Below, piece by piece: positions 21,446 to 23,175 of a stretch of 32,000 bases of DNA (position 1 is the first letter of the stretch; the number at the start of each line of letters is the position of its first letter). Under the pieces are notes generated by a model that saw only the letters and a program-made list of their open reading frames with translations, searched no databases and was not told the origin of the DNA. The position numbers and the translations under genes were made by a program. Origin of the DNA: Candidatus Micrarchaeum sp. (GTDB lineage Archaea > Micrarchaeota > Micrarchaeia > Micrarchaeales > Micrarchaeaceae); assembly GCF_016806735.1 (NCBI RefSeq), contig NZ_CP060530.1:840001-872000 (forward strand). The letters are read 5' to 3'.

Positions 21446-22390
21446 TCAATCCGCCTCGTGATGGACAAGCTTTATTATCCCCTGCCTTGGCCTGTATATG
21501 TCGCCAGAGCGCTCAAGCTCCGATAGATATTTGCTTGCGGTTGTGGAGTCTATGCCTGCGGCTTCGGCATCCTCTATCACTTTTTGTATCTTTATGTTGC
21601 TGTCCGACTCCTCAAGCTTCTTTATTATGTTAAGTATTGAATTCATGCGGTCTACCTTCTCCCTCGGCATTCCGGTCAATATCGTATCTATGTCTATGCG
21701 GCCTCCCGTATCCAATGCCAATGACTTAAGCATGAACCTGCTAAGCTCTATTGCAGTCTCAGAATCGGATAATTCAACCACGTCAGAAAGCCTTGACTTC
21801 GCGCTCGCCTCGCTCATCCTCACCAATCCCTCTATCTGCCTCGGGGTTATGGGAACGGCGCCCTGCCTTTGGCCAGTCTTTCTCAAGTCGACATAATATT
21901 TCTGTAAATATTCGCTGGCCTCCTGGCTCAGCCTTGGCGATACGTTCTTGCGTGCATATGCAATGTATTTCCTTAACAAATCCGAGTCTATAGGAGGCTC
22001 TTCGACTTGCTCAAACCCTTTTATGTCAGCAAGCCTTGCGCCTGCCGCCTCATGCTGCATAAGTATGTGCTTTGCTATGTTCCTATCCGTGTCCTCGTCC
22101 ATCACGTCGGTTATTGGGAATATGAGGTCGAACCTTGACAATAGCGTAGGAGGTATGTCGAACTGCTCAGCGGGATACTGGTGGGGATCGAACCTTCCGA
22201 ATTTCGGGTTCGCAGCAGCAAGCACAGCAGCCCTTGCACTGAATGTGGCTATTATACCCGCTTTGGCTACGCTTATGGTCTGCGATTCCAAGGCCTCGTG
22301 AAGCGCGGCCCTGTCGTCCTGGCTTATCTTGTCGAATTCGTCTATGCACACTATGCCGCCACTGCCCAGGACCATGGCTCCTGCCTTCAA
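21446..22390 (-). CDS. mcm: MCM replicative helicase, C-terminal half only (5'-truncated; probable pseudogene or gene remnant)
   Basis: Starts inside the AAA+ core: '[21 protein letters not shown]' (Walker B), '[18 protein letters not shown]', '[10 protein letters not shown]' and the arginine finger 'LSRFDLIF', then a winged-helix-like tail. The N-terminal domain and Walker A are absent. The ORF-track start is a TTG. In-frame MCM-like sequence ('[12 protein letters not shown]') continues upstream to about 22430 and then stops. Confidence 0.8.
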   Translation of the reverse strand: [314 protein letters not shown]

Positions 22391-23175
22391 TGTCCAGCCG
22401 CCCTCGGAGAAATCGTCGCGCTCTGCAACTTGTTTTTCATTTCCTCCTCGAAATCAGTATAACCCCTGTCGAAATGCGCTCCGAGCCTTTCAGGCCCAGA
22501 CAGTATCCTTACATTTTTGACGTTTGATGCGCTGTCATTGAACAATGCGAGCATGTTTTCCATGGCCTTGCTGTCGAAATGCATGTCCAGTATGCTTATG
22601 TCGCCCTTAAGCCTTGCGAAAAAGTCCTTTGACAGCAACAGCATGTTCGAGTATGGGGTTTCCGGATCTATGCTTATGGACCTTAACGAATGGGCCTCCT
22701 GCAACCTGCTCGCTATAGTAATGCCCTTTATGCCTACGTATATGCCCAATGCAACGCCTATGAAAGGCGCCAGGGTTATTATGGGCCCTATGTAGAAGTC
22801 AGCGTCCATCAGGGCAAGCAGCATACCGAATATCAAAGATGAAAAAAGCATCCCTACGCTCAATGTCTTGAGGTTCTGCCTTGTTATGAGCAGCATTGCG
22901 CCTATGCTGAACATTATGAGCGTGAATGGCAGCATAACATATGTTATATGGACAGCTATTGCAAGCGCGGAAGTGCCCTCGAGTGATGTCAATAATGTGT
23001 TTGAAGGGGTTATGTTGTATGTAGTTATAATGGAAGTAATTCCCCTGACCACTCCTACGCTATATGACAGGAACTGCATGTAGTAGAAATTCGAAAGCAT
23101 GGCTATGAATCCTGCGGCGAGCGCAATGTACGCCAACCTTCCATGTGCACTTCGTGATGGTCGCTGAATTTCCAT
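22387..23175 (-). CDS. 3'-truncated paralogue of the cassette membrane protein (cassette B)
   Basis: Collinear with 8385-9359 ('AAGFIAMLSNFYYMQFLSYSVG...ILDMHFDSKAMENML...FDRGYTDFEEEMKNK'). It then diverges into 13 unrelated codons that are out-of-frame mcm sequence before the stop. It lacks about 75 C-terminal residues present in copy A. Start taken as ATG 23175; the ORF track uses TTG 23196. Confidence 0.6.
   Translation of the reverse strand: MEIQRPSRSAHGRLAYIALAAGFIAMLSNFYYMQFLSYSVGVVRGITSIITTYNITPSNTLLTSLEGTSALAIAVHITYVMLPFTLIMFSIGAMLLITRQNLKTLSVGMLFSSLIFGMLLALMDADFYIGPIITLAPFIGVALGIYVGIKGITIASRLQEAHSLRSISIDPETPYSNMLLLSKDFFARLKGDISILDMHFDSKAMENMLALFNDSASNVKNVRILSGPERLGAHFDRGYTDFEEEMKNKLQSATISPRAAGH

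Follow-up and report, generated by a model that had tools for sequence, protein, structure and literature searches.

A truncated membrane-protein gene fused to a truncated mcm: the probable seam of a recent tandem duplication in the chromosome of Candidatus Micrarchaeum harzensis A_DKE

Tandem-duplication joints that arise from illegitimate, microhomology-mediated recombination are known in bacterial chromosomes (Salmonella, E. coli), and extra or truncated mcm genes are known in integrated elements of Methanococcales and Thermococcales. Here we describe a breakpoint in a 32,000-nt stretch of the chromosome of Candidatus (Ca.) Micrarchaeum harzensis A_DKE (contig NZ_CP060530.1 of assembly GCF_016806735.1, positions 840,001–872,000; hereafter the window). 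At this breakpoint, on the minus strand, a membrane-protein gene without its 3′ end (memB′, the truncated form of memB) is fused to a copy of mcm, the gene of the MCM helicase, without its 5′ part. We propose, with a probability of roughly 0.78, that a segment of ~14.3 kb was recently duplicated head to tail (in tandem) and that the breakpoint is the novel joint of this segmental duplication. Events of this type are already known, and this one has apparently not been noted before for the A_DKE organism.

The locus shares several properties with the bacterial joints. A single novel joint connects the end of one unit to the start of the next with just 2 bp of homology, the interrupted genes also occur intact or have intact alleles, and a long perfect direct repeat is present that could collapse. 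Unlike the bacterial cases, the two units are non-identical and carry surface-protein cassette alleles (cassettes A and B) that have diverged to 61–76%, so the event would have joined two haplotypes instead of copying one. The host genome also differs, being that of a 0.99-Mb DPANN archaeon in which such redundancy is unusual. The second, incomplete mcm open reading frame (ORF) beside variable genes recalls the mcm genes of archaeal integrated elements. In contrast to those, the fragment is identical to the host MCM protein, lies in a conserved mcm–SPP–XPD context, and is explained by a local duplication with no mobile-element genes.

The joint can be placed to within two bases. The memB′ ORF (22387–23196, minus strand) encodes 269 aa when counted from the TTG at 23196, or 262 aa from the ATG at 23175 that NCBI uses as the start. 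It aligns without gaps to its 339-aa cassette A paralogue memA at 61% identity over 241 aa, the alignment ending ...EEMKNK / ...FDRGYTDFEEEMKNK. Homology between memB and memA stops at the AAG codon 22431–22429, from 22430 downward the DNA is that of mcm codons 361–687, and memB′ runs on for 13 codons (LQSATISPRAAGH) to its stop. In a three-way alignment the intact memB (locus L091) reads ...GAAATGAAAAACAAG followed by GGAATCACA..., the window reads ...GAAATGAAAAACAAG followed by TTGCAGAGCGCG..., and the intact mcm (locus L001) reads ...GGATTGACCGCAG followed by TTGCAGAGCGCG..., which places the crossover inside the shared dinucleotide AG at 22430–22429. A first-pass annotation, made from the window sequence alone, had described a membrane gene that matches its paralogue and then continues into 13 out-of-frame mcm codons, and comparison with memA confirms this to the base. 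Its coordinates for the start of mcm sequence (about 22430) and for an in-frame stop (22454–22456) are also correct. The loss of membrane-gene codons that it estimated at about 75 is real, and the count becomes 76, since the intact memB encodes 325 aa and an identical prefix of 249 aa, from the ATG, is kept. Folding of the DNA at the two parental break sites gave z-scores of −0.6 and −0.5 for mcm and −1.5 and −2.0 for memB; this amounts to no convincing hairpin, and a hairpin or cruciform at these sites was rejected on the same scores. The features of the locus are collected in Table 1.

Table 1 Features of the locus and contigs that cross the joint (window coordinates).
Feature	Position	Strand	Description
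Novel joint	22429..22431	-	Last memB codon AAG = K256 from TTG, K249 from ATG; AG common to mcm (GC-AG-TT), a 2-bp microhomology; from three-way alignment and BLAST boundaries
memB-derived part of memB′	22431..23196	-	N-terminal region and part of C-terminal region kept; last 76 codons gone
Out-of-frame tail of memB′ from mcm DNA	22387..22428	-	LQSATISPRAAGH and stop TGA 22389-22387
TGA stop in mcm frame	22454..22456	-	Within memB-derived DNA, 8 codons 5′ of first intact mcm codon
5′-truncated mcm copy	21446..22430	-	Last base of codon 360, codons 361-687, stop; Walker B CIDEFDK, lid, winged helix
Perfect repeat copy, 3.49 kb	18940..22430		XPD codons ~95-618, SPP, mcm codons 361-687; other copy attached to full mcm outside the window
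SPP (signal-peptide-peptidase/presenilin-type)	20461..21432	-	Pfam SPP 1.2e-20; downstream of truncated mcm; mcm-SPP-XPD order kept in relatives
XPD_A (XPD/Rad3-type helicase)	18658..20514	+	First ~94 codons specific to copy A, remainder within perfect repeat
Cassette A	8385..18620		Intact memA (8385-9404, -), secreted protein 680 aa, MinD/ParA-like ATPase, surface protein 1786 aa, hyp232
Cassette B	23267..32000	+	Secreted protein 668 aa (23267-25273), MinD/ParA-like ATPase (25274-26092), surface protein 1801 aa (26160-31565), ORF177 start (31621 on)
Joint-crossing contig DAHVGA010000007.1	21570..29359		100% identity
Joint-crossing contig DAHVGB010000007.1	starts 22398		100% identity
Joint-crossing contig Logan SRR5169068_99 (run SRR5169068)	starts 22401		Starts 30 nt into shared DNA; 100% identity

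Both sides of the joint have an uninterrupted counterpart. On the mcm side, the same chromosome encodes a full MCM of 687 aa (P0176; QRF74388.1, WP_203134506.1), and the fragment matches the last 326 residues of this protein exactly. The first-pass annotation had supposed that an intact mcm might exist elsewhere and had suggested searching the genome for a complete gene and for the missing N-terminal half; that search returns this continuous, full-length protein. P0176 was found in the 90% cluster of P0092, a 496-aa N-terminal MCM from the protein search that runs off the end of the draft contig MWKQ01000003.1. On this contig mcm codons 1–496 continue in frame across the break site, and the final 409 nt of its intact mcm DNA (L001) are 100% identical to window 22430–22022. 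On the memB side, the intact gene of L091 (325 aa) is 100% identical in DNA to window 23221–22429 (793 nt) and is followed by a Lon-protease-like gene with 78% amino-acid identity to the Lon-like gene beside memA. The identity of both sides to intact alleles (793 nt of memB; 409 nt and 326 aa of mcm), with no disabling mutation in the mcm part, argues for a young joint.

The neighbours of the intact genes bear on the simplest account of the fusion. In the A_DKE organism, the 5′ side of the intact mcm is occupied by a 61-aa ORF, MetRS, ribosomal protein genes and two FtsZ genes. A strain in ENA that is 98.9% identical has a short upstream ORF, the full mcm and SPP in an arrangement collinear with L001, with MetRS upstream of mcm. 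The six closest species representatives have SPP and XPD downstream of a full mcm and the FtsZ pair a few kb upstream, and none of the six has a mem gene upstream of mcm. Across ~60 species representatives, the retrieved loci contain a single, uninterrupted mcm. The first-pass annotation had explained both truncations by a single deletion between memB and mcm. One shared breakpoint does account for both, but synteny gives no support to an ancestor in which memB and mcm were adjacent, with a Lon-like gene after the intact memB and the MetRS/FtsZ side 5′ of the intact mcm. As these ancestral neighbours are unlike those of the model and nothing is missing, simple deletion was rejected.

The evidence for a duplication comes from the perfect 3.49-kb repeat, one copy of which ends at the joint. 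The XPD 3′ part, SPP and the mcm 3′ part are present twice and nothing essential has been lost, a topology expected of a duplication. The repeat has two alternative flanks on each side. The last 523 aa are the same in the XPD_A and XPD_B proteins, which differ solely in the first 95 codons (81/95 identical), where the 5′ DNA differs by ~25%, while SPP is represented by one sequence only in its 90% cluster. One contig (L084, DAHVGB010000009.1) corresponds exactly to window 22430 to 18936. Another (L083, Logan SRR5169350_1308) starts exactly at 22430, is identical as far as 18940, and from there matches the window at only ~75% as it enters the XPD_B 5′ end, beyond which the upstream gene is also a different one. 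Both contigs behave as collapsed repeats.

The tandem order was assembled from overlapping evidence. A JGI contig (L085) overlaps window 30703–32000 at 99.8% identity and continues through ORF177, hyp239, XPD_B, SPP (minus strand) and mcm (minus strand); it is 99.5% identical to the Logan XPD_B contig. The corresponding A_DKE proteins carry near-consecutive accessions (hyp239 QRF74385.1, Micr_00921; XPD_B QRF74386.1; full MCM QRF74388.1), and ORF177 was also located on the 989,838-bp chromosome. In window coordinates, extrapolation from the overlapping contig puts the full mcm at ~35,710–37,773; measured at the mcm stop, the period between the full and the truncated copy is 14,264 bp. Read in the direction of mcm, the first unit is MetRS–mcm(full)–SPP–XPD_B–hyp239–ORF177–bigB–MinD_B–secB–memB(codons 1–256), and the joint is followed by mcm(codons 361–687)–SPP–XPD_A–hyp232–bigA–MinD_A–secA–memA–Lon-like. 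The window, L085 and the accession order agree on a head-to-tail arrangement. In the window the convergent XPD (plus strand) and SPP (minus strand) genes overlap by 54 nt at their 3′ ends (20461–20514), and the same overlap is seen in L083, L084 and L085.

The published circular chromosome of Ca. M. harzensis A_DKE (989,838 bp) was assembled from PacBio RSII reads with HGAP3 and corrected with Illumina data (PMC8975820); the main text of that paper is silent on MCM and on a duplication, and its supplements contain no match for MCM or the locus tags. The first-pass annotation had considered that the contig might be chimeric, with cassette B falsely linked to the middle of mcm. Two observations could be taken in this sense: MWKQ01000003.1 reads through the site into the N-terminal half of mcm, ending 409 bp after it, and several short-read contigs break exactly at 22430. 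However, the chromosome was closed with PacBio long reads, and three further contigs, two from third-party NCBI assemblies and one from a Logan assembly, run across the joint at 100% identity (Table 1). The closed genome also annotates a full and a truncated mcm together with both XPD variants, and the contig breaks at 22430 and at 18936–18940 are those that a true two-copy repeat produces. A chimera is thus extremely improbable and was rejected, on the closed genome and the other joint-crossing assemblies. A search of JGI metagenome contigs with 36–38-nt patterns from both sides of the joint gave no match, and it missed L091 too, so the collection searched evidently lacks those contigs.

The head-to-tail nature of the seam follows from the meeting of memB codon 256, the end of one unit, with mcm codon 361, the start of the next. 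We envisage one illegitimate recombination in which memB codon 256 on a chromosome with a B-type cassette would have been joined to mcm codon 360/361 on a chromosome with an A-type cassette, at the 2-bp AG microhomology. This could have happened by unequal crossover between two chromosome copies. An equally possible route to the same product would be the circularisation of a 14-kb B-type fragment, followed by its homologous integration into the shared mcm–SPP–XPD segment. The latter is formally a Campbell-type integration: a circle [H–X] closed at J gives the topology a–H–X–J–H–b found here, where H is the 3.49 kb of mcm 3′ part, SPP and XPD 3′ part. It would differ from the classical case in lacking an integrase, an att site and any plasmid or viral gene; the circle is hypothetical, and J would be a scar of end joining instead of a site-specific junction. 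By either route, both parents would have carried identical mcm–SPP–XPD(3′) segments and differed from XPD codon ~95 onwards, where a hypervariable surface-protein island begins. The duplication would then have left the truncated mcm and the truncated memB as by-products that are too young to have decayed, replication would rely on the intact mcm one unit away, and XPD and SPP would now be present in two copies each. Such a structure should be prone to collapse through homologous recombination between the 3.49-kb direct repeats.

Several points weigh against this reading. Most of the corroborating assemblies probably derive from one enrichment culture; they exclude an artefact of the assembler, while the structure might still be peculiar to that culture. 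The order and identity of the second repeat copy are deduced from accession order, identical proteins, a 99.5% identical JGI strain and collapsed short-read contigs. No single-nucleotide polymorphisms were seen in the 3.49-kb repeat, though they would be expected if the parental haplotypes were different strains; near-isogenic parents or later gene conversion are therefore needed. The sole intact memB found, that of L091, diverges 25 nt upstream of the TTG at 23196 (46 nt upstream of the ATG at 23175) and so is not the exact B-type parent. The sequence of L091 upstream of this point (1–126, compared with window 23222–23347) is unrelated to the window above 23221, which suggests that the divergent promoter region between the mem and secreted-protein genes is another recombination boundary and that at least a third haplotype exists. 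Finally, a duplication followed by a deletion would yield the same final sequence.

In that last scenario, a larger region was doubled first, by a bigger duplication or through an imported haplotype that included Lon_B...MetRS–mcm, and the segment from memB codon 257 to mcm codon 360 was then deleted. Besides the identical outcome, the 2-bp microhomology suits a deletion equally well, and the memB–Lon-like arrangement of L091 makes the deleted material plausible. The scenario invokes two events where one is enough, however; no second Lon_B or MetRS remnant was seen, and the perfect identity of both joint sides to intact alleles leaves only a short time for two steps. We regard it as unlikely. 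Still less weight falls on an ancient tandem duplication, as old as the divergence of cassettes A and B, in which gene conversion by the functional copy kept mcm–SPP–XPD(3′) homogeneous. At their 5′ ends the DNA of XPD_A and that of XPD_B have diverged about as far as the cassettes (71–76% identity), and a conversion tract would naturally end at the joint. Yet a memB′ that matches, over 793 nt at 100%, an intact allele with its own 3′ end and Lon-like neighbour is incompatible with an old truncation. Related species have an A-like cassette directly beside a full mcm, with no B unit, and the single intact mcm in the retrieved loci of the species representatives points the same way; an ancient origin is very unlikely.

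The content of the mcm fragment indicates what the joint has left behind. In the full MCM, Walker A (GDPGSAKT) occupies residues 325–332 and Walker B residues 388–394, so that the break after codon 360 falls between them. Pfam matches the fragment to positions 104–224 of the 224-position MCM P-loop model PF00493 (E 1.4e-50) and to the MCM lid (E 2.1e-27), with a borderline winged helix at 25.3 bits, slightly below the cut-off of 27; it finds no MCM_N, no OB fold (MCM_OB) and no Walker A. Of the parts of a functional MCM helicase, the fragment thus has Walker B (DEFDK), the AAA-lid and the borderline winged helix, and has neither the N-terminal domain with its OB fold nor a complete P-loop with Walker A. 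Without the DNA-binding N-terminal tier and Walker A, it would be unable to act alone as a helicase. The 327 mcm codons of the fragment contain no stop and no frameshift, and NCBI annotates ORFs of 314 aa (TTG at 22390) and 309 aa (ATG at 22375). The first-pass annotation had found no N-terminal domain, Walker A or ATG; Pfam agrees on the two domains, whereas both of these start codons lie in frame. On the other side of the joint, memB′ keeps its N-terminal region, and the 76 lost residues come from a C-terminal region, conserved in both memA and intact memB, that has no Pfam or NCBIfam match. Most likely, the mcm fragment has no helicase function and memB′, truncated and with its tail swapped, does not work as a complete membrane protein. 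On the same strand memB′ is followed by the mcm 3′ part and SPP, which may be co-transcribed with it. A bacterial-type promoter and terminator scan near the joint stayed at the level of shuffled sequence, its models being bacterial and the host archaeal. The stop TGA of memB′ and the TTG at which the annotated 314-aa mcm ORF starts overlap (TTGA, 22387–22390, minus strand), a layout like that of translational coupling that is probably fortuitous.

The fragment might alternatively be a functional split or accessory C-terminal MCM protein (a split gene, an intein-related half or a regulator of the hexamer), or the relic of an mcm-bearing mobile element. The annotated intact ORF of 309–314 aa with Walker B, arginine finger, lid and winged helix could be read in this way, as could its start overlapping the memB′ stop, and in several Micrarchaeota assemblies MCM is annotated as an N and a C ORF of its own. 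Where the DNA of such ORF pairs was examined, however, they came from frameshifts, small duplications or contig ends. Neither memB′ nor the mcm fragment has an intein domain in Pfam, and a stop 8 codons 5′ of codon 361 closes the fragment's frame. Neither splicing blocks nor a C/S/T +1 residue were found: the first kept residue is V361, and the sequence upstream of it is memB DNA. The N-terminal half is not separately encoded, since matching N-terminal sequences belong to the continuous mcm alone, which is present in the same genome. With no intein sequence in the window, the locus departs from intein-bearing and split archaeal MCMs, and an intein or split gene, which the first-pass annotation had named as the finding that would overturn its deletion, was rejected because no intein domain occurs, mcm is continuous in the same genome and those split ORFs of relatives that were examined as DNA are otherwise explained. 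The same annotation had suggested the relic of an integrated element. This proposal does not hold up either, given a fragment identical to the host protein in its ancestral mcm–SPP–XPD context. The window contains no tRNA gene, the Pfam hits on its large ORFs are to cellular and cell-surface families with no integrase or transposase among them, and neither element genes, an att/tRNA target nor a diverged mcm were found; an integrated element was rejected on the absence of a tRNA gene and the solely cellular or surface nature of the Pfam hits. Taken together, a split, accessory or element-derived MCM is scarcely credible.

The position of the break within mcm invites comparison with intein-bearing MCMs. 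In four distant DPANN MCMs (P0068, P0076, P0080 and P0118), a LAGLIDADG-type intein is inserted at the GL/T359 point, exactly before the T359-equivalent (...VHN/TASAxxD), and the A_DKE crossover lies just 5–7 nt 3′ of it. Independent lesions, all between about −30 and +13 nt from the T359 point, are seen in four other assemblies. We therefore considered whether the break position is a recurrent fragile site in Micrarchaeota. If the lesions are real, double-strand breaks at the intein homing site might seed rearrangements, including the 14-kb duplication; the breaks might arise where a homing endonuclease attacks alleles that lack the intein, or where replication stalls at the neighbouring GGA/G-run. 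Against this, all four assemblies (L092, L093, L095 and L096) are short-read metagenome contigs, ~60 species representatives are intact at the site, and other disrupted MCM ORFs start elsewhere in the gene. The MCM inteins of close relatives, moreover, occur solely at the Walker B site or are absent. A true fragile or homing-endonuclease site at this position is accordingly quite unlikely.

The individual lesions differ in kind. In L092 (ENA ERZ27237502 k141_263944), a rearranged contig of a related strain whose mcm break position is that of the window, the reverse complement of the last 140 bp of mcm is joined to mcm codon 360/361 in a fold-back with ~10 nt of inverted microhomology (GCAGTTGCAG); its positions 243–391 hold this joint together with the reverse-complemented SPP 3′ end and a deletion of 669 bp in SPP. 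The other three Micrarchaeota assemblies have small lesions that may be assembly errors. In L093 (6040–6070), 29 nt are deleted up to 1 nt short of the T359 codon, which shifts the frame. L095 (5023–5217) has a perfect tandem duplication of 97 nt that ends at ACTG; because the same gene contains two more perfect micro-duplications, an assembly artefact is suspected. L096 (5060–5075) has a +1 insertion beside the G-run, which may be a homopolymer error. The closer relatives L052, L053 and L055 (P0017, P0021) carry an MCM intein just before the Walker B Cys (…HN/CIDEFDK), a position at which A_DKE has none.

The two cassettes surrounding the joint belong to a variable locus. Of the repeat unit ending at the joint, cassette B forms the unique part, and it continues past the window in L085. 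Between cassettes A and B, the mem proteins share 61% amino-acid identity and the cassette DNA 71–76%. The ~1,800-aa proteins of the cassettes have a PGF-pre-PGF domain and InlB-type B-repeats, while the ~670–680-aa secreted proteins have no family match and the small hypothetical proteins hyp232 (A), ORF177 and hyp239 (B) have no family assignment. The giant cassette proteins were rejected as candidates for the published S-layer protein, which is Micr_00292 (101 kDa). Three internal repeats, with a period of ~1,551 bp, are present in each giant gene (1786 and 1801 aa; 14008–17440 and 27656–31082), and the allele on the JGI contig L085 encodes 1,286 aa, about one repeat (~515 aa) less, so that repeat number varies between strains. 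In the related species L046 and L064, an A-like cassette lies directly beside a full mcm, its big protein having 81–84% identity to bigA and 61–66% to bigB. By these comparisons, the A and B cassettes are old alleles that predate the joint.

Mosaicism extends beyond the joint itself. In the related species L002, L003 and L005, XPD adjoins mem (~13770–13970 in the respective locus) and the secreted, MinD, giant and hyp232 genes are absent, so the surface cassette is polymorphic in its presence as well as in its alleles. An XPD mosaic boundary lies at window 18658–18940 (L083, 3490–3780): the first ~95 codons of XPD_A are 95–96% identical in amino acids to those of L002, L046 and L064, and the remaining 523 only 80%. 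In comparisons with L002 (L001 against L002, and window 2352–9335 against L002 14002–20981), identity changes sharply in blocks, from 89% upstream of mcm to 78% in mcm–SPP–XPD(3′) and 93.6% from memA to ICDH. These patterns suggest frequent recombination between Micrarchaeum lineages around the locus, which has the appearance of a recombination-rich, hypervariable surface-protein island.

To our knowledge, A_DKE is the only closed genome of a cultivated Micrarchaeon, and the proposed origin of the joint changes how its annotation would be read. The 309/314-aa MCM and the 262-aa hypothetical protein would be by-products of a duplication joint, with no sign of an unusual replication apparatus or of a lost helicase. 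A 14-kb tandem duplication would thus be tolerated even in a 0.99-Mb, host-dependent DPANN genome. It would stack two diverged alleles of a cell-surface cassette, and loci of this type are expected to have a role in contact with the Thermoplasmatales host. As the perfect 3.49-kb repeat predicts collapse, the copy number of cassette B, XPD and SPP may vary between culture passages.

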